Origin: Escherichia coli
GTDB lineage: Bacteria > Pseudomonadota > Gammaproteobacteria > Enterobacterales > Enterobacteriaceae
Assembly (NCBI RefSeq): GCF_003334305.1
Contig: NZ_QOWS01000043.1
Reading direction: 5' to 3' (one strand)
Length of the DNA: 10,116 nucleotides
Shown: positions 1 through 10,005 of the stretch, piece by piece
How the letters are laid out: every line of letters starts with the position of its first letter
Position numbering within the stretch: the stretch's first letter is position 1
Notes under the pieces: model-generated
Seen by the model: only the letters and a program-made list of their open reading frames with translations
Databases searched by the model: none
Told to the model about the DNA's origin: nothing
Position numbers and translations under genes: made by a program

Positions 1-76
1 GAGCGGTAGTTCAGTCGGTTAGAATACCTGCCTGTCACGCAGGGGGTCGCGGGTTCGAGTCCCGTCCGTTCCGCCA
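1..76 (+). tRNA. aspT: tRNA-Asp (anticodon GTC), truncated by 1 nt at the window edge (5' G missing)
   Basis: Sequence gagcggtagttcagtcggttagaatacctgcctgtcacgcagggggtcgcgggttcgagtcccgtccgttccgcca matches the E. coli tRNA-Asp sequence as I recall it, minus the first G. GTC anticodon at about 34-36 in the loop ctgtcac, T-arm ggttcgagtcc, encoded 3' CCA. The gene name is assigned by context (followed by tRNA-Trp and hdfR, as at the distal end of rrnC). Confidence 0.9.
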
Positions 77-84
77 CCCTAATT

Positions 85-160
85 AGGGGCGTAGTTCAAT
101 TGGTAGAGCACCGGTCTCCAAAACCGGGTGTTGGGAGTTCGAGTCTCTCCGCCCCTGCCA
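85..160 (+). tRNA. trpT: tRNA-Trp (anticodon CCA)
   Basis: 76-nt sequence aggggcgtagttcaattggtagagcaccggtctccaaaaccgggtgttgggagttcgagtctctccgcccctgcca matches E. coli tRNA-Trp as recalled. Anticodon CCA at 118-120, T-arm gttcgagtc, encoded CCA end. An 8-nt spacer (77-84) separates it from tRNA-Asp. Confidence 0.9.
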
Positions 161-165
161 GAAAT

Positions 166-195
166 CATCCTTAGCGAAAGCTAAGGATTTTTTTT
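166..195 (+). terminator. Rho-independent terminator downstream of the tRNA pair (end of the rRNA/tRNA transcription unit)
   Basis: Perfect 9-bp inverted repeat atccttagc (166-174) / gctaaggat (179-187) with a 4-nt loop gaaa, followed directly by a run of 8 T (188-195). Confidence 0.8.
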
Positions 196-255
196 ATCTG
201 AAATAACCCTCTCCGAAGTAAATCCTTCTACCGGCATCCTTGCCAGCCATTCATA

Positions 256-1095
256 TTAATACACTTCATCCAGCACGTTAATTTTCAAAAGATCGCGAAT
301 CAACGTATTTTTATCGCTATTTTGCAGCCATATGGCATAAAGCGGCCGTGAAAGTGTTGTGCTATCGACAACGGTATGCAGGCCGCCTTTTTTACGCGCC
401 CAGCTGACGGGTAGCCAGGTGCAACCATTAAGCATCGCAATCTGTTGCTGTGCCAGTTCAGCAGAACTGGTTGTCAGAATGGGCACTTCGTCAGCACCGA
501 TCAAACCTGCCTCATGCTGTTGAAAATCTGGCCCCCACTCAAGTCGCAGATAATTAAGATCTCCCTTTAGTTTTGAAGGGGCACTGGTATAAAGCGCTAA
601 AGTGAAATATCCCAGCAACTGACTACTAAATTCGTCCATTTTGGGCGCTTCAGTGGTAATAAGAAGATCAAGCTGGCGTTCATGCAGCTGTTTTACCAGA
701 GACTGCCGTTGGGCAATTCGCGCTTCGAACTGTAAGCCTGTATGGGCATCCTGATTTTGATACAAACGTCCCAGCCACTGATTAAGCATACATTCCCACA
801 ATGAGGCGCTGGCACCGATAGAAAACTCGTTATGTCGTGAGGTATGCGCCACCTCCTTGCGGGCGGCCTGCCAGGTGCTCATGAGCGTTTCTGCATAAGG
901 CAGTAGTTTTTCACCGGCAGCGGTTAAACGGATATTGTTTCTGTGGCGGGTGAAAAGGTTCACACCCAGTTGATTTTCCAGTTGTCTGATTCGAAAGCTC
1001 ACTGCTGACTGGGTCAGATAGAGCGATTCAGCCGCTCGACCAAAGTGACGCGTTCGGCTAACTTCCAGGAAAGTTTTTAACAATTCCGTATCCAC
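256..1095 (-). CDS. hdfR: LysR-family transcriptional regulator HdfR (279 aa), GTG start
   Basis: 279-aa ORF with an N-terminal LysR-type helix-turn-helix ([16 protein letters not shown]) and a C-terminal substrate-binding-like domain. The sequence matches HdfR/YifA as recalled. The first codon is GTG (plus-strand cac at 1093-1095), preceded on the coding strand by GGAGAG, an appropriately spaced Shine-Dalgarno. Position between the tRNAs and maoP/comM matches known synteny. Confidence 0.85.
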
Positions 1096-1162
1096 AGTGC
1101 TCTCCGCAAAATTATTTGTCGTTATGATTTAAATGTTTTGTTTTACACTCTGTCAAGCGTAA

Positions 1163-1179
1163 CTAATACTCCGCGCCAT
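1163..1179. promoter_or_regulatory. Candidate maoS site (17-bp cis element of the MaoP/maoS Ori macrodomain system) within the hdfR-maoP divergent promoter region
   Basis: Exact string ctaatactccgcgccat in the hdfR-maoP intergenic region. I recall this 17-mer as the published maoS sequence and this as its reported location. The identity is from memory and needs checking against the literature. Confidence 0.55.
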
Positions 1180-1213
1180 AACTAGCTCGGTCAAAGAATT
1201 AGGAGCGTGCAGG

Positions 1214-1552
1214 ATGGCGGAAAGCTTTACGACGACTAATCGATATTTCGACAATAAACATTATCCACGTGGATTCTCTCGTCATGGTGATTTCACCATC
1301 AAAGAGGCACAACTGCTTGAGCGTCATGGTTATGCCTTCAATGAGTTGGATCTTGGCAAACGCGAGCCGGTTACCGAGGAAGAGAAACTCTTCGTAGCAG
1401 TATGCCGTGGCGAACGTGAGCCAGTGACAGAAGCAGAACGCGTGTGGTCCAAGTATATGACGCGTATTAAGCGTCCAAAACGTTTTCACACCCTTTCCGG
1501 CGGTAAACCGCAGGTTGAAGGTGCTGAAGACTACACCGATTCTGATGATTAA
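1214..1552 (+). CDS. maoP: MaoP / YifE (DUF413 family, macrodomain Ori protein), 112 aa
   Basis: 112-aa ORF with ATG start at 1214 and an AGGAG Shine-Dalgarno at 1201-1205 (8-nt spacer). Sequence [42 protein letters not shown] matches YifE as recalled. Divergent from hdfR, convergent with comM. Confidence 0.85.
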
Positions 1553-1553
1553 T

Positions 1554-1576
1554 AAAAAGGGCGAAATGCCCTTTTT
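1554..1576. terminator. Bidirectional intrinsic terminator shared by convergent maoP (+) and comM (-)
   Basis: Stem aaaaagggc (1554-1562) / gcccttttt (1568-1576) with loop gaaat. The GC-rich core gggc/gccc is flanked by an A-run on the 5' side and a T-run on the 3' side, so either strand reads as hairpin plus U-tract. maoP stop is at 1550-1552 and comM stop at 1577-1579, directly abutting. Confidence 0.75.
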
Positions 1577-3097
1577 TTATGTCAGTAGTTTTTGCAGATG
1601 GATGAGCAAACGGTCAATCGCACGATAGCTAACTGCCTCCTGCAAATGCTGACGTGTGATAATGTCAGACTGATCAATATCAGCAATGGTTCGTGCAACT
1701 TTCAATAACCGCTGCCAGGCACGAATCGATAACCCCAGATGGATCAGTGTTCCTTCCAACCACATCGCATCTTCGCTCTCAAGTTTGCAGAATTGGCGTA
1801 TTTCCGGACTATCCAGCCAGGCATTCAGTTTATTCTGCCGCTTAAATTGGCGCTCTCTGGCGGCCATTACGCGTTGTTTAACGGTGGCGCTGCTTTCTCC
1901 CGGCACTACCGTTTTACTCAAAATGCCGGGGGGTGGTAATGGGATCTCCAGTGAGAGATCGAAGCGGTCGAGAAAGGGCCCCGAGAGCCGGTTGAGATAA
2001 CGTAATGTCTGTTCTGGCGTGCAGCGGTTATGGTTTCCCTGATAATGTCCGGTAGGGCTGGGATTCATCGCCGCAACAAGCTGGAAACGGGCTGGATAGG
2101 TTATTTTGGCTCGTGTGCGTGAAAGATGGATCTGCCCGGATTCAATCGGCTCTCGCAAGGCATCCAGTGTACGCCGTTCAAATTCAGGTAGCTCATCAAG
2201 AAAAAGCACGCCGTTATGCGCCAACGAAATTTCACCTGGCCCTGGAATTGCACCACCGCCCACCATCGCAGTTAACGACGCACTGTGATGCGGTGAGCGG
2301 AACGGGCGCTGCCGCCATTGTTTTTGTACTGATTCAGCATTTACCAGACTTAATATCGCAGCGCTCTCCAGTGCCTCTTCATTGCTTAAATCTGGCAACA
2401 GGCCATTAATACGGCTGGCGAGCATTGTTTTACCTGTTCCCGGCGGCCCAATCAGTAAAAGGTTGTGCCCGCCAGCGGCGGTAATTTCCAGTCCTCGCTT
2501 TCCTTGCTCCTGACCGACAACATCACTGAGATCATGTTGTAGCGCCCGGGATACTGCATCAGTTGGTTTCGGGCGTTCGAGAGCGTGCTTACCTTCCAGA
2601 AACGCACAGACAGCCTGCAGATGATCGGCTATCAGGCATCCTTCACCGTTAATTAGCCCCACTTCATCTTCGTTATCTTTCGCGACGATAATTTTTCTGC
2701 CCGACTTAATAGCTTCAGTTGCACTGGAGATTGCGCCGGGAACGCCACGCAGAGCGCCTGTAAGCGCCAGTTCTCCGACTAATTCATATTCATCTAACTT
2801 ATTGGCTGTAAGCTGTTCTGAGGCCGCCAGCAACGCAATGGCGATAGGTAAATCATATCGTCCCCCTTCTTTTGGCAGATCGGCTGGAGCCAGGTTGATG
2901 GTGATTTTTTTCGCCGGATATTCATATCCGCTATTGATAATGGCGCTGCGCACGCGATCGCGAGCTTCTTTTACAGTTGTTTCTGGTAAGCCCACCATCG
3001 TTAAGCCGGGTAGACCTTTACTGATATGTACCTCAACAGTGATTGGGGGCGCATTTACTCCCAGGGCTGCGCGGGTATGAACAATTGACAGTGACAT
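1577..3097 (-). CDS. comM: ComM / YifB, Mg-chelatase-like AAA+ ATPase (competence protein ComM homolog), 506 aa from the downstream ATG
   Basis: Long minus-strand ORF with Walker A (LLLIGPPGTGKTM) and Walker B (VLFLDELPEF) motifs and an N-terminal Lon-protease-like region. The six-frame track starts at the ATG at 3127 (516 aa), but the in-frame ATG at 3095-3097 is preceded on the coding strand by AAGGAGGG with about a 4-nt spacer, a near-consensus Shine-Dalgarno. It gives the 506-aa product beginning MSLSIVHTRA, which matches my recollection of YifB. Confidence 0.85.
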   Translation of the reverse strand: MSLSIVHTRAALGVNAPPITVEVHISKGLPGLTMVGLPETTVKEARDRVRSAIINSGYEYPAKKITINLAPADLPKEGGRYDLPIAIALLAASEQLTANKLDEYELVGELALTGALRGVPGAISSATEAIKSGRKIIVAKDNEDEVGLINGEGCLIADHLQAVCAFLEGKHALERPKPTDAVSRALQHDLSDVVGQEQGKRGLEITAAGGHNLLLIGPPGTGKTMLASRINGLLPDLSNEEALESAAILSLVNAESVQKQWRQRPFRSPHHSASLTAMVGGGAIPGPGEISLAHNGVLFLDELPEFERRTLDALREPIESGQIHLSRTRAKITYPARFQLVAAMNPSPTGHYQGNHNRCTPEQTLRYLNRLSGPFLDRFDLSLEIPLPPPGILSKTVVPGESSATVKQRVMAARERQFKRQNKLNAWLDSPEIRQFCKLESEDAMWLEGTLIHLGLSIRAWQRLLKVARTIADIDQSDIITRQHLQEAVSYRAIDRLLIHLQKLLT

Positions 3098-3304
3098 AAG
3101 CCCTCCTTGAGTCACTATTATGTGCATAAGATATCGCTGCTGTAGCCCGCTAATTCGTGAATTTTAGTGGCTGATTCCTGTTTATTTGTGCAAGTGAAGT
3201 TGAGTTGTTCTGGCGGTGGAATGATGCTCGCAAAAATGCAGCGGACAAAGGATGAACTACGAGGAAGGGAACAACATTCATACTGAAATTGAATTTTTTT
3301 CACT

Positions 3305-3380
3305 CACTATTTTCTTTTTAAAAAACAACAATTTCTATTGAAATTATTAAACGCATCATAAAAATCGGCCAAAAAATATC
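3305..3380 (+). promoter_or_regulatory. AT-rich upstream activating region of the ilv operon promoter (UP-element / IHF-binding region expected here)
   Basis: About 80% A+T stretch with several A5-6 tracts (3320-3325, 3360-3364, 3371-3376) immediately upstream of the candidate core promoter. Published work on ilvGMEDA describes an upstream AT-rich activating region with an IHF site and a non-productive upstream promoter. Exact site boundaries cannot be fixed from sequence alone. Confidence 0.4.
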
Positions 3381-3421
3381 TTGTGCTATTCGCAAAATCT
3401 ATGGTAACTCTTTAGGCATTC
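3381..3421 (+). promoter_or_regulatory. Candidate core promoter and transcription start region for ilvLXGMEDA
   Basis: Candidate -35 TTGTGC (3381-3386) and candidate -10 hexamers in 3400-3410 (tatggt / taactc). A start near 3420 would give a leader of about 180 nt ending at the attenuator T-run (3596-3603), consistent with the recalled leader length. The hexamer assignment is uncertain. Confidence 0.35.
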
Positions 3422-3449
3422 CTTCGAACAAGATGCAAGAAAAGACAAA

Positions 3450-3548
3450 ATGACAGCCCTTCTACGAGTGATTAGCCTGGTCGTGATTAGCGTGGTGGTG
3501 ATTATTATCCCACCGTGCGGGGCTGCACTTGGACGAGGAAAGGCTTAG
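3450..3548 (+). CDS. ilvL: ilv operon leader peptide (32 aa): MTALLRVISLVVISVVVIIIPPCGAALGRGKA
   Basis: ATG at 3450 through TAG at 3546-3548. 15 of 32 codons encode Leu (4), Val (6) or Ile (5), the hallmark of the branched-chain amino acid attenuation leader. An intrinsic terminator lies immediately downstream. Confidence 0.9.
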   Translation: MTALLRVISLVVISVVVIIIPPCGAALGRGKA

Positions 3549-3569
3549 AGATCAAGCCTTAACGAACTA

Positions 3570-3603
3570 AGACCCCCGCACCGAAAGGTCCGGGGGTTTT
3601 TTT
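3570..3603 (+). terminator. ilv attenuator (Rho-independent terminator of the leader transcript)
   Basis: GC-rich stem acccccg (3571-3577) / cgggggt (3590-3596) followed by 8 consecutive T (3596-3603), 22 nt after the ilvL stop codon. Confidence 0.85.
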
Positions 3604-3634
3604 TGACCTTAAAAACATAACCGAGGAGCAGACA

Positions 3635-3685
3635 ATGAATAACAGCACAAAATTCTGTTTCTCAAGATTCAGGACGGGGAACTAA
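3635..3685 (+). CDS. ilvX: Small ORF ilvX (16 aa: [16 protein letters not shown]) between the attenuator and ilvG
   Basis: ATG at 3635-3637 preceded by GAGGAG (3624-3629), stop TAA at 3683-3685, two nt before the ilvG ATG. It matches the position and sequence of the described E. coli small protein IlvX as I recall it. Translation cannot be judged from sequence alone. Confidence 0.55.
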
Positions 3686-3687
3686 CT

Positions 3688-5334
3688 ATGAATGGCGCAC
3701 AGTGGGTGGTACATGCGTTGCGGGCACAGGGTGTGAACACCGTTTTCGGTTATCCGGGTGGCGCAATTATGCCGGTTTACGATGCATTGTATGACGGCGG
3801 CGTGGAGCACTTGCTGTGCCGACATGAGCAGGGTGCGGCAATGGCGGCTATCGGTTATGCCCGTGCTACCGGCAAAACTGGCGTATGTATCGCCACGTCT
3901 GGTCCGGGCGCAACCAACCTGATAACCGGGCTTGCGGACGCACTGTTAGATTCTATCCCTGTTGTTGCCATCACCGGTCAAGTGTCCGCACCGTTTATCG
4001 GCACGGACGCATTTCAGGAAGTGGATGTCCTGGGATTGTCGTTAGCCTGTACCAAGCACAGCTTTCTGGTGCAGTCGCTGGAAGAGTTGCCGCGCATTAT
4101 GGCTGAAGCATTCGACGTTGCCAGCTCAGGTCGTCCTGGTCCGGTTCTGGTCGATATCCCAAAAGATATCCAGCTAGCCAGCGGTGACCTGGAACCGTGG
4201 TTCACCACCGTTGAAAACGAAGTGACTTTCCCACATGCCGAAGTTGAGCAAGCGCGCCAGATGCTGGCAAAAGCGCAAAAACCGATGCTGTACGTTGGTG
4301 GTGGCGTGGGTATGGCGCAGGCAGTTCCTGCTTTACGAGAATTTCTCGCTACCACAAAAATGCCTGCCACCTGCACGCTGAAAGGGCTGGGCGCAGTTGA
4401 AGCAGATTATCCGTACTATCTGGGCATGCTGGGAATGCATGGCACCAAAGCGGCGAACTTCGCGGTGCAGGAGTGCGACTTGCTGATCGCCGTGGGTGCA
4501 CGTTTTGATGACCGGGTGACCGGCAAACTGAACACCTTCGCACCACACGCCAGTGTTATCCATATGGATATCGACCCGGCAGAAATGAACAAGCTGCGTC
4601 AGGCACATGTGGCATTACAAGGTGATTTAAATGCTCTGTTACCAGCATTACAGCAGCCGTTAAATATCAATGACTGGCAGCTACACTGCGCGCAGCTGCG
4701 TGATGAACATGCCTGGCGTTACGACCATCCCGGTGACGCTATCTACGCGCCATTGTTGTTAAAACAACTGTCGGATCGTAAACCTGCGGATTGCGTCGTG
4801 ACCACAGATGTGGGGCAGCACCAGATGTGGGCCGCGCAGCACATCGCACACACTCGCCCGGAAAATTTCATTACCTCCAGCGGCTTAGGCACCATGGGTT
4901 TCGGTTTACCAGCGGCGGTTGGCGCACAAGTCGCACGACCGAACGATACTGTCGTCTGTATCTCCGGTGACGGCTCTTTCATGATGAATGTGCAAGAGCT
5001 GGGCACCGTAAAACGCAAGCAGTTACCGTTGAAAATCGTCTTACTCGATAACCAACGGTTAGGGATGGTTCGACAATGGCAGCAACTGTTTTTTCAGGAA
5101 CGATACAGCGAAACCACCCTTACTGATAACCCCGATTTCCTCATGTTAGCCAGCGCCTTCGGCATCCCTGGCCAACACATCACCCGTAAAGACCAGGTTG
5201 AAGCGGCACTCGACACCATGCTGAACAGTGATGGGCCATACCTGCTTCATGTCTCAATCGACGAACTTGAGAACGTCTGGCCGCTGGTGCCGCCTGGCGC
5301 CAGTAATTCAGAAATGTTGGAGAAATTATCATGA
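3688..5334 (+). CDS. ilvG: Acetolactate synthase II (AHAS II) large catalytic subunit, intact 548 aa
   Basis: Uninterrupted 548-aa ORF starting [25 protein letters not shown] with a thiamine-diphosphate binding motif ([14 protein letters not shown]...LDN). GGGGA Shine-Dalgarno-like sequence 8 nt upstream. Followed by ilvM with a 4-nt overlap. Confidence 0.95.
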
Positions 5335-5594
5335 TGCAACATCAGGTCAATGTATCGGCTCGCTTCAATCCGGAAACCTTAGAACGTGTTTTACGCGTGG
5401 TGCGTCATCGTGGTTTCCACGTCTGCTCAATGAATATGGCTGCCGCCAGCGATGCACAAAATATAAATATCGAATTGACCGTTGCCAGCCCACGGTCGGT
5501 CGACTTACTGTTTAGTCAGTTAAATAAACTGGTGGACGTCGCACACGTTGCCATCTGCCAGAGCACAACCACATCACAACAAATCCGCGCCTGA
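5331..5594 (+). CDS. ilvM: Acetolactate synthase II small (regulatory) subunit, 87 aa
   Basis: 87-aa ORF starting [12 protein letters not shown]. Its ATG (5331-5333) overlaps the ilvG last codon and stop (tcATGA), typical of translational coupling. Size and position match IlvM. Confidence 0.9.
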
Positions 5595-5613
5595 GCGCAA
5601 AAGGAATATAAAA

Positions 5614-6543
5614 ATGACCACGAAGAAAGCTGATTACATTTGGTTCAATGGGGAGATGGTTCGCTGGGAAGACGCGAAGGTGCATGTGATGTCGCACGCG
5701 CTGCACTATGGCACCTCGGTTTTTGAAGGCATCCGTTGCTACGACTCACACAAAGGACCGGTTGTATTCCGCCATCGTGAGCATATGCAGCGTCTGCATG
5801 ACTCCGCCAAAATCTATCGCTTCCCGGTTTCACAGAGCATTGATGAGCTGATGGAAGCTTGTCGTGACGTGATCCGCAAAAATAATCTCACCAGCGCCTA
5901 TATCCGTCCGCTGATCTTCGTCGGTGATGTTGGCATGGGAGTAAACCCGCCAGCGGGATACTCAACCGACGTGATTATCGCTGCTTTCCCGTGGGGAGCG
6001 TATCTGGGCGCAGAAGCGCTGGAGCAGGGGATCGATGCGATGGTTTCCTCCTGGAACCGCGCAGCACCAAACACCATCCCGACGGCGGCAAAAGCCGGTG
6101 GTAACTACCTCTCTTCCCTGCTGGTGGGTAGCGAAGCGCGCCGCCACGGTTATCAGGAAGGTATCGCGCTGGATGTGAACGGTTATATCTCTGAAGGCGC
6201 AGGCGAAAACCTGTTTGAAGTGAAAGATGGTGTGCTGTTCACCCCACCGTTCACCTCCTCCGCGCTGCCGGGTATTACCCGTGATGCCATCATCAAACTG
6301 GCGAAAGAGCTGGGAATTGATGTGCGTGAGCAGGTTCTGTCGCGCGAATCCCTGTACCTGGCGGATGAAGTGTTTATGTCCGGTACGGCGGCAGAAATCA
6401 CGCCAGTGCGCAGCGTAGACGGTATTCAGGTTGGCGAAGGCCGTTGTGGCCCGGTTACCAAACGCATTCAGCAAGCCTTCTTCGGCCTCTTCACTGGCGA
6501 AACCGAAGATAAATGGGGCTGGTTAGATCAAGTTAATCAATAA
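5614..6543 (+). CDS. ilvE: Branched-chain amino acid aminotransferase (PLP fold type IV), 309 aa
   Basis: ORF starting at ATG 5614 (MTTKKADYIWFNGEMVRWEDAKVHV...) preceded by AAGGA at 5601-5605. The track's 331-aa version starts at an upstream TTG (5548) inside ilvM and is an over-extension. Sequence matches IlvE as recalled. Confidence 0.92.
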   Translation: MTTKKADYIWFNGEMVRWEDAKVHVMSHALHYGTSVFEGIRCYDSHKGPVVFRHREHMQRLHDSAKIYRFPVSQSIDELMEACRDVIRKNNLTSAYIRPLIFVGDVGMGVNPPAGYSTDVIIAAFPWGAYLGAEALEQGIDAMVSSWNRAAPNTIPTAAKAGGNYLSSLLVGSEARRHGYQEGIALDVNGYISEGAGENLFEVKDGVLFTPPFTSSALPGITRDAIIKLAKELGIDVREQVLSRESLYLADEVFMSGTAAEITPVRSVDGIQVGEGRCGPVTKRIQQAFFGLFTGETEDKWGWLDQVNQ

Positions 6544-6552
6544 ATACAAAAA

Positions 6553-6577
6553 ATGGGACGGCACGCACCGTCCCATT
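6553..6577 (+). other. Intercistronic stem-loop between ilvE and ilvD (possible weak terminator / mRNA stability or processing element)
   Basis: Perfect 8-bp inverted repeat tgggacgg (6553-6560) / ccgtccca (6567-6574) with a 6-nt loop, preceded by an A-run and followed by only TTT. This is not a strong U-tract, so partial termination at most. Confidence 0.5.
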
Positions 6578-6607
6578 TACGAGACAGACACTGGGAGTAA
6601 ATAAAGT

Positions 6608-8458
6608 ATGCCTAAGTACCGTTCCGCCACCACCACTCATGGTCGTAATATGGCGGGTGCTCGTGCGCTGTGGCGCGCCACCGGAATGACCGACGCCGAT
6701 TTCGGTAAGCCGATTATCGCGGTTGTGAACTCGTTCACCCAATTTGTACCGGGTCACGTCCATCTGCGCGATCTCGGTAAACTGGTCGCCGAACAAATTG
6801 AAGCGGCTGGCGGCGTTGCCAAAGAGTTCAACACCATTGCGGTGGATGATGGGATTGCCATGGGCCACGGGGGGATGCTTTATTCACTGCCATCTCGCGA
6901 ACTGATCGCTGATTCCGTTGAGTATATGGTCAACGCCCACTGCGCCGACGCCATGGTCTGCATCTCTAACTGCGACAAAATCACCCCGGGGATGCTGATG
7001 GCTTCCCTGCGCCTGAATATTCCGGTGATCTTTGTTTCCGGCGGCCCGATGGAGGCCGGGAAAACCAAACTGTCCGATCAGATAATCAAACTCGATCTGG
7101 TTGATGCGATGATCCAGGGCGCAGACCCGAAAGTTTCTGACTCCCAGAGCGATCAGGTTGAACGTTCCGCGTGTCCGACCTGCGGCTCCTGCTCCGGGAT
7201 GTTTACCGCTAACTCAATGAACTGCCTGACCGAAGCGCTGGGTCTGTCGCAGCCGGGCAACGGCTCGCTGCTGGCAACCCACGCCGACCGTAAGCAGTTG
7301 TTCCTCAATGCCGGTAAACGCATTGTTGAATTGACCAAACGTTACTACGAGCAAAACGACGAAAGTGCACTGCCGCGCAATATTGCTAGCAAAGCGGCGT
7401 TTGAAAACGCCATGACGCTGGATATCGCGATGGGTGGATCGACTAACACCGTACTTCACCTGCTGGCGGCGGCGCAGGAAGCGGAAATCGACTTCACCAT
7501 GAGTGATATCGATAAGCTTTCCCGCAAGGTTCCACAGCTGTGTAAAGTTGCGCCGAGCACCCAGAAATACCATATGGAAGATGTTCACCGTGCTGGTGGT
7601 GTTATCGGTATTCTCGGCGAACTGGATCGCGCGGGGTTACTGAACCGTGATGTGAAAAACGTACTTGGCCTGACGTTGCCGCAAACGCTGGAACAATACG
7701 ACGTTATGCTGACCCAGGATGACGCGGTAAAAAATATGTTCCGCGCAGGTCCTGCAGGCATTCGTACCACACAGGCATTCTCGCAGGATTGCCGTTGGGA
7801 TTCTCTCGATGACGATCGCGCCAATGGCTGTATCCGCTCGCTGGAACACGCCTACAGCAAAGACGGCGGCCTGGCGGTGCTCTACGGTAATTTCGCAGAA
7901 AACGGCTGCATCGTTAAAACCGCGGGCGTCGATGACAGCATCCTCAAATTCACCGGCCCGGCGAAAGTGTACGAAAGCCAGGACGACGCGGTAGAAGCGA
8001 TCCTCGGTGGCAAAGTTGTCGCGGGCGATGTGGTGGTGATCCGCTATGAAGGCCCGAAAGGCGGCCCTGGCATGCAGGAAATGCTCTACCCAACCAGCTT
8101 CCTGAAATCAATGGGTCTCGGTAAAGCCTGTGCGCTGATCACCGACGGTCGTTTCTCTGGCGGCACCTCTGGTCTTTCCATCGGCCACGTCTCACCGGAA
8201 GCGGCAAGCGGCGGCAGCATTGGTCTGATTGAAGATGGTGACCTGATCGCTATCGACATCCCGAACCGTGGCATTCAGTTACAGGTAAGCGATGCCGAAC
8301 TGGCGGCGCGTCGTGAAGCGCAGGAAGCTCGGGGTGACAAAGCCTGGACGCCGAAAAACCGTGAACGTCAGGTTTCCTTTGCCCTGCGCGCCTACGCCAG
8401 CCTGGCAACCAGCGCCGACAAAGGTGCGGTGCGCGATAAATCGAAACTGGGGGGTTAA
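6608..8458 (+). CDS. ilvD: Dihydroxy-acid dehydratase, 616 aa
   Basis: 616-aa ORF starting [26 protein letters not shown]. Cysteine cluster [11 protein letters not shown] consistent with Fe-S cluster ligation in the IlvD/EDD dehydratase family. GGGAG upstream of the ATG. Confidence 0.95.
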
Positions 8459-8460
8459 TA

Positions 8461-10005
8461 ATGGCTGACTCGCAACCCCTGTCCGGTGCTCCGGAAGGTG
8501 CCGAATATTTAAGAGCAGTGCTGCGTGCGCCGGTTTACGAGGCGGCGCAGGTTACGCCGCTACAAAAAATGGAAAAACTGTCGTCGCGTCTTGATAACGT
8601 CATTCTGGTGAAGCGCGAAGATCGCCAGCCAGTGCACAGCTTTAAGCTGCGCGGCGCATACGCCATGATGGCGGGCCTGACGGAAGAACAAAAAGCGCAC
8701 GGCGTGATCACTGCTTCTGCGGGTAACCACGCGCAGGGCGTCGCGTTTTCTTCTGCGCGGTTAGGCGTGAAGGCCCTGATCGTTATGCCAACCGCCACCG
8801 CCGACATCAAAGTCGATGCGGTACGTGGATTCGGCGGCGAAGTGCTGCTTCATGGCGCGAACTTTGACGAAGCGAAAGCTAAAGCGATCGAACTGTCACA
8901 GCAGCAGGGGTTCACCTGGGTGCCGCCGTTCGACCATCCGATGGTGATTGCCGGGCAAGGCACGCTGGCGCTGGAACTGCTCCAGCAGGACGCCCATCTC
9001 GACCGCGTATTTGTGCCAGTCGGCGGCGGCGGTCTGGCGGCGGGCGTTGCGGTGCTGATCAAACAACTGATGCCACAAATCAAAGTGATCGCCGTAGAAG
9101 CGGAAGACTCCGCCTGCCTGAAAGCAGCGCTGGATGCGGGTCATCCGGTTGATCTGCCGCGCGTAGGGCTATTTGCTGAAGGCGTAGCGGTAAAACGCAT
9201 CGGTGACGAAACCTTCCGTTTATGCCAGGAGTATCTCGACGACATCATCACCGTCGATAGTGATGCGATCTGTGCGGCGATGAAGGATTTATTCGAAGAT
9301 GTGCGCGCGGTGGCGGAACCCTCTGGCGCGCTGGCGCTGGCGGGAATGAAAAAATATATCGCCCAGCACAACATTCGCGGCGAACGGCTGGCGCATATTC
9401 TTTCCGGTGCCAACGTGAACTTCCACGGCCTGCGCTACGTCTCGGAACGCTGCGAACTGGGCGAACAGCGTGAAGCGTTGTTGGCGGTGACCATTCCGGA
9501 AGAAAAAGGCAGCTTCCTCAAATTCTGCCAACTGCTTGGCGGGCGATCGGTCACCGAGTTCAACTACCGTTTTGCCGATGCCAAAAACGCCTGCATCTTT
9601 GTCGGCGTGCGCCTGAGCCGCGGCCTCGAAGAGCGCAAAGAAATTTTGCAGATGCTCAACGACGGCGGCTACAGCGTGGTGGATCTCTCCGACGACGAAA
9701 TGGCGAAGTTGCATGTGCGCTATATGGTCGGCGGGCGTCCGTCACATCCGTTGCAGGAACGCCTCTACAGCTTCGAATTCCCGGAATCACCGGGCGCGCT
9801 GCTGCGCTTCCTCAACACGCTGGGTACGCACTGGAACATTTCTTTGTTCCACTATCGCAGCCATGGCACCGACTACGGGCGCGTACTGGCGGCGTTCGAA
9901 CTCGGCGACCATGAACCGGATTTCGAAACCCGGCTAAATGAGCTGGGCTACGATTGCCACGACGAAACCAATAATCCGGCGTTCAGGTTCTTTTTGGCGG
10001 GTTAG
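8461..10005 (+). CDS. ilvA: Threonine deaminase (biosynthetic threonine dehydratase), 514 aa
   Basis: 514-aa ORF starting MADSQPLSGAPEGAEYLRAV with the PLP-lysine motif SFKLRGA and a C-terminal regulatory (ACT-like) region. It starts 2 nt after the ilvD stop, with a G-rich Shine-Dalgarno inside the ilvD 3' end. Confidence 0.95.
   Translation: MADSQPLSGAPEGAEYLRAVLRAPVYEAAQVTPLQKMEKLSSRLDNVILVKREDRQPVHSFKLRGAYAMMAGLTEEQKAHGVITASAGNHAQGVAFSSARLGVKALIVMPTATADIKVDAVRGFGGEVLLHGANFDEAKAKAIELSQQQGFTWVPPFDHPMVIAGQGTLALELLQQDAHLDRVFVPVGGGGLAAGVAVLIKQLMPQIKVIAVEAEDSACLKAALDAGHPVDLPRVGLFAEGVAVKRIGDETFRLCQEYLDDIITVDSDAICAAMKDLFEDVRAVAEPSGALALAGMKKYIAQHNIRGERLAHILSGANVNFHGLRYVSERCELGEQREALLAVTIPEEKGSFLKFCQLLGGRSVTEFNYRFADAKNACIFVGVRLSRGLEERKEILQMLNDGGYSVVDLSDDEMAKLHVRYMVGGRPSHPLQERLYSFEFPESPGALLRFLNTLGTHWNISLFHYRSHGTDYGRVLAAFELGDHEPDFETRLNELGYDCHDETNNPAFRFFLAG

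Follow-up and report, generated by a model that had tools for sequence, protein, structure and literature searches.

Is the ilvG gene at this locus the working gene of a wild Escherichia coli lineage, or a form of the defective gene carried by K-12, and how much does the answer tell about the strain? The window, by which we mean the whole stretch of 10,116 bases analysed here, contains the operon that encodes acetohydroxyacid synthase (AHAS) II. Valine feedback-inhibits isozymes I and III but not AHAS II, and adding valine starves K-12, which lacks AHAS II, of isoleucine (PMC8605374; PMC3446290). Valine resistance is conferred by ilvG (PMC3032704, PMC3446290), and K-12 can grow with valine at 1 mg/ml once its reading frame is restored (PMC8605374, Table 3). 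A second effect of the frameshift is polarity on ilvEDA, a finding of Parekh & Hatfield 1997 that PMC8605374 cites. An earlier note had described the ilvG of this window as intact and had proposed that it came from a non-K-12 lineage or from an ilvG+ revertant.

Gene content and operon context

The arrangement ilvL-ilvX-ilvG-M-E-D-A in the window is that of the standard operon. The genes and regulatory features are as follows, with ilvE, ilvD and ilvA each identified by an NCBIfam equivalog and by RefSeq.

1-76 (+), tRNA-Asp, one base cut off by the start of the window
85-160 (+), tRNA-Trp
256-1095 (-), hdfR
1214-1552 (+), maoP
1577-3097 (-), yifB, 506 aa (RefSeq)
3450-3548 (+), ilvL, a 32-aa leader peptide rich in Ile, Val and Leu (MTALLRVISLVVISVVVIIIPPCGAALGRGKA; ORF and RefSeq annotation)
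3569-3604 (+), attenuator terminator, with a GC-rich hairpin and, 3′ of it, a U8 run (RNA fold; inside the match to Rfam RF02744)
3635-3685 (+), ilvX, a 16-aa small peptide gene directly 5′ of ilvG (sequence and RefSeq annotation)
3688-5334 (+), ilvG, catalytic (large) subunit of acetolactate/acetohydroxyacid synthase II (ORF, NCBIfam, Pfam and RefSeq)
5331-5594 (+), ilvM, AHAS II small subunit, 87 aa, WP_000983255.1 (NCBIfam NF008362, 133.9 bits; RefSeq)
5614-6543 (+), ilvE
6608-8458 (+), ilvD
8461-10005 (+), ilvA

The attenuator folds at -21.6 kcal/mol (z = -3.92), a value equalled by 0 of 200 shuffles. This plus-strand element was missed by a consensus terminator scan of 3098-3700, because its stem has one internal mismatch, and was recovered by direct folding. 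A consensus promoter scan of the same interval returned chance-level matches only. At the 3′ end of ilvG, its TGA overlaps the ATG of ilvM as ATGA, which implies translational coupling of the two subunits.

Three smaller observations concern the upstream half of the window. In the K-12 record, the tRNA-Asp and tRNA-Trp genes come after the 23S and 5S rRNA genes, and positions 1-160 are thus the distal end of an rrn operon. The start of yifB is ambiguous, though trivially so: an ORF opens at ATG 3127 (516 aa) as against 3097 (506 aa) in RefSeq and NCBIfam, and the NCBIfam yifB profile aligns to residues 11-516 of the 516-aa ORF. Lastly, positions 3379-3668 (+) give a full-length match of 157 bits to Rfam RF02744 ('Rev39_5p_UTR'), a family whose description comes from soft-rot Enterobacteriaceae. 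Since this match takes in the ilvL leader, the attenuator and ilvX, the family is effectively the ilvGMEDA leader.

The ilvG reading frame and its product

Both the ORF list and the translation give a single plus-strand ORF of 548 codons at 3688-5334, running from its ATG to a TGA at 5332-5334, and the translation contains no internal stop between these positions. The earlier description of the frame as uninterrupted is thereby borne out. RefSeq annotates ilvG, with the protein WP_001012619.1, at identical coordinates in a strain that matches the window at 100% over its entire length.

Membership of the family is clear. The NCBIfam equivalog NF006524 ('acetolactate synthase 2 catalytic subunit', PRK08978) scores 1073.9 bits against IlvG, the curated cutoff being 738, and aligns to residues 1-547 of 548 profile positions. 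Pfam places TPP_enzyme_N (PF02776) at residues 1-115, TPP_enzyme_M (PF00205) at 186-321 and TPP_enzyme_C (PF02775) at 374-522. The closest solved structure by sequence is IlvB, the large subunit of E. coli AHAS I (PDB 6lpi), with residues 2-544 aligned at E = 3.5e-161; the two proteins have in common the three-domain ThDP enzyme architecture and the conserved RHEQG and GDG motifs. Unlike IlvG, IlvB belongs to a paralogous isozyme that is valine-sensitive and has IlvN rather than IlvM as its partner (isozyme properties from PMC8605374). Motif searches located the catalytic and cofactor-binding positions, among them the C-terminal ThDP-binding motif that the note had said was retained:

3826-3828 (+), codon of the catalytic Glu47 in the RHEQG motif of the N-terminal pyrimidine-binding (Pyr) domain, which aligns with RHEQG of 6lpi
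4966-5052 (+), ThDP/Mg2+-binding motif of the C-terminal domain, from GDG (residues 427-429) to DN (residues 454-455), within TPP_enzyme_C

The lesion in K-12

The frameshift in K-12 ilvG is reportedly described by Lawther et al. 1981, the work that PMC8605374 cites for it. Both the frameshift and the intact state of the gene in other E. coli are already known (PMC3032704, PMC3446290, PMC8605374). K-12 (MG1655 and derivatives) shares with the window the locus, its neighbours, the leader and the attenuator, and its ilvG DNA is 97.7% identical. In the K-12 record of strain MC1000, RefSeq marks ilvG as a pseudogene ('frameshifted').

Base-by-base pairwise alignment shows a sole indel between the two ilvG sequences, namely two bases present in the window at 4664-4665 and absent from K-12, such that the gene is 1,645 bases long in K-12 and 1,647 in intact alleles. 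The site is a short repeat:

4664-4667 (+), ATAT dinucleotide repeat in codons N326-I327, of which the window has both units and K-12 has lost one AT unit (pairwise alignment)

The context AAATATC of the window consequently reads AAATC in K-12, which is translated as ...L325 N326 Q327 TGA, with the stop at codon 328 of 548. This agrees with the premature UGA reported right after Leu325 in K-12 ilvG (PMC8605374), and it is the small indel with a premature stop that the note had expected. The K-12 product lacks the C-terminal 221 residues, including the whole ThDP-binding domain and the GDG...DN motif. The lesion is a 2-bp slippage in the ATAT repeat, and the deletion in K-12 is a derived exception.

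Occurrence of intact ilvG in complete genomes

A match to ilvG was found in every one of 5,426 complete E. coli genomes searched, with at least 80% coverage in 5,424. The K-12 junction was counted with a probe of 36 bases centred on the deletion, for which every 28-base megablast seed must cross the junction; it occurs in 340 of the 5,426 genomes (6.3%). Sixty carriers sampled from these 340 were mostly K-12 laboratory derivatives, transconjugants and O16:H48 strains. The equivalent probe for the window junction matched exactly in 3,496 genomes, and the remaining genomes escape an exact match because of SNPs inside the probe, as in the O157:H7 and ST131 contexts.

That the intact gene is the norm rests on these junction-probe counts together with a sample of 60 rows and five distant alleles. 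The sampled rows cover the full identity range; 55 span 1,647 bases, four of K-12 type span 1,645 and one has a large deletion. The five fetched alleles, from B, W, O157:H7, ST131 (O25:H4) and UPEC F11, are as little as 94.8% identical to the window in DNA, and all have 548 codons without an internal stop and the AAATATC context. Intact ilvG is the ancestral and near-universal state, the default of the species. The claim that an open ilvG is the most informative strain-level feature of the window was overstated, given that the K-12 junction is confined to those 340 genomes and that every non-K-12 allele inspected is intact.

Two records met in this survey deserve mention in their own right. 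NZ_CP026085.1 (4762053-4764699), from a strain labelled 'DH5alpha' with a genome of 4.83 Mb, has ilvG uninterrupted and at 100% identity with the allele of the window and of W (WP_001012619.1); at the ilvG locus this genome is not K-12, and the strain label looks doubtful. In NZ_CP068680.1 (NCCP12480, positions 3001-5234 of the extracted locus), a deletion has taken out ilvM, ilvE and ilvD and left the initial ~954 nt of ilvG directly joined to the 3′ portion of ilvA. The ilvG and ilvA remnants are annotated as partial pseudogenes, and the hdfR, maoP and yifB proteins of this record have the same accessions as those of K-12.

Lineage of the window

The note had also expected the sequence to match strains with a functional ilvG such as B or W, and it does. 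W, B and Crooks all carry the gene in intact form (PMC3032704; PMC3446290), and W belongs to phylogroup B1 (PMC3032704). The ilvG of E. coli W (ATCC 9637) shares all 1,647 bases with the window (100% identity) and encodes the same WP_001012619.1, and the ilvL-ilvX-ilvG-ilvM arrangement is alike. A B derivative has an intact ilvG that is 98.2% identical. Identity of 100% is also seen with O103:H2 12009, B7A and many others, and ilvG DNA is at least 99% identical in 752 genomes.

With the full 10,116 bases as query, seven complete genomes match over the full length at the top bit score of 18681, all from wild isolates (H15, A7, A28, DETEC-E601, 41, TUM12355 and EC7072022BGR), and six further genomes lie about one base away from the whole window. 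The 40 best full-window matches, the weakest of which is 99.4% identical, include no W record, and the window is therefore not from W itself. As a strain marker the SNP haplotype is much more informative than the ilvG frame, since an open frame excludes only K-12.

Divergence from K-12 and alternative readings

An open frame would equally be seen if the window came from a valine-resistant, 'ilvO'-type K-12 revertant in which a second mutation had restored the ilvG frame, and such mutants arise readily under selection (PMC8605374). The documented ones, however, delete one base of the premature TGA and do not re-insert the AT (PMC8605374), whereas the window shares its ATAT site with all wild alleles inspected. 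A compensating indel was looked for in the 9,334-base alignment with K-12 and none was found: the 9,334 shared bases have 139 mismatches and no gap other than the ilvG lesion itself. Within ilvG there are 36 substitutions, leaving five amino-acid differences (residues 146, 222, 332, 342 and 494) once the K-12 frame is repaired. The whole-window matches of highest score are, moreover, the seven wild isolates and not K-12. A revertant origin has next to no chance of being correct and is excluded by the SNP haplotype; of the two origins that the note had offered, it is the non-K-12 lineage that stands.

The frame could also be open in a gene that is silent, or whose enzyme is inactive, through regulatory or missense changes, in which case the strain would be K-12-like in phenotype. 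Candidate changes exist, since the yifB-ilvL intergenic (promoter) region has seven substitutions relative to K-12 and the protein differs from frame-repaired K-12 at the five residues given above. Yet all five are in a state common to other wild alleles, every catalytic and cofactor motif is present, and E. coli W and many natural isolates have the identical protein, with the 752 genomes of at least 99% DNA identity behind it. Nor is the leader or attenuator altered, there being 0 differences from K-12 across 3450-3687 (ilvL, attenuator and ilvX). We regard a silent or inactive gene as very improbable. With these alternatives weighed, the sequence at 3688-5334 is almost certainly the ancestral, functional ilvG allele of a wild, non-K-12 E. 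coli lineage.

As a separate matter, divergence from K-12 is patchy along window positions 1-9334 compared with the MC1000 record, with 0 differences in 6501-7000, 23 in 8001-8500 and 33 in 4001-5000; by gene, divergence is 2.7% in ilvD and 0.75% in ilvE. Such a pattern points to mosaicism through recombination, to unequal constraint, or to the two together.

Two of the K-12 residues, S342 and H494, lie 3′ of the frameshift and are private to K-12 among the seven alleles compared. Drift after pseudogenisation was considered as their origin and rejected, as 36-base probes for them match 1,581 and 971 genomes respectively, far more than the 340 carriers of the frameshift. Both belong to the standing variation among strains whose ilvG is intact. 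It is improbable that the five residue differences give a B1-type AHAS II with kinetics or stability unlike those of K-12-derived revertant enzymes, and nothing suggests that they do.

Predicted function and significance

IlvG is the ThDP/FAD-type catalytic subunit of AHAS II, which it would form together with the translationally coupled IlvM. The enzyme would condense pyruvate with pyruvate or with 2-ketobutyrate, the first common step of valine, leucine and isoleucine synthesis, and transcription of ilvG would proceed from the ilvL leader under attenuation by isoleucine, valine and leucine. With no interruption of the frame, translation should extend through the whole C-terminal ThDP-binding domain, and absence of the premature stop implies absence of polarity on ilvM-E-D-A; the source strain should express ilvEDA free of the polarity of the K-12 type. 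Given the open frame, the unchanged leader and attenuator and the coupled ilvM, production of AHAS II and resistance to valine are expected of the source strain. These predictions of expression, enzyme activity and valine resistance draw on sequence identity and on the literature cited above.

The window is not from K-12 or one of its derivatives. The intact ilvG was correctly identified but is ordinary, and it matters little beyond bookkeeping. What it does predict is that the host resists valine and that its ilvGMEDA operon is free of polarity, which would be useful for work on branched-chain amino-acid physiology or production.
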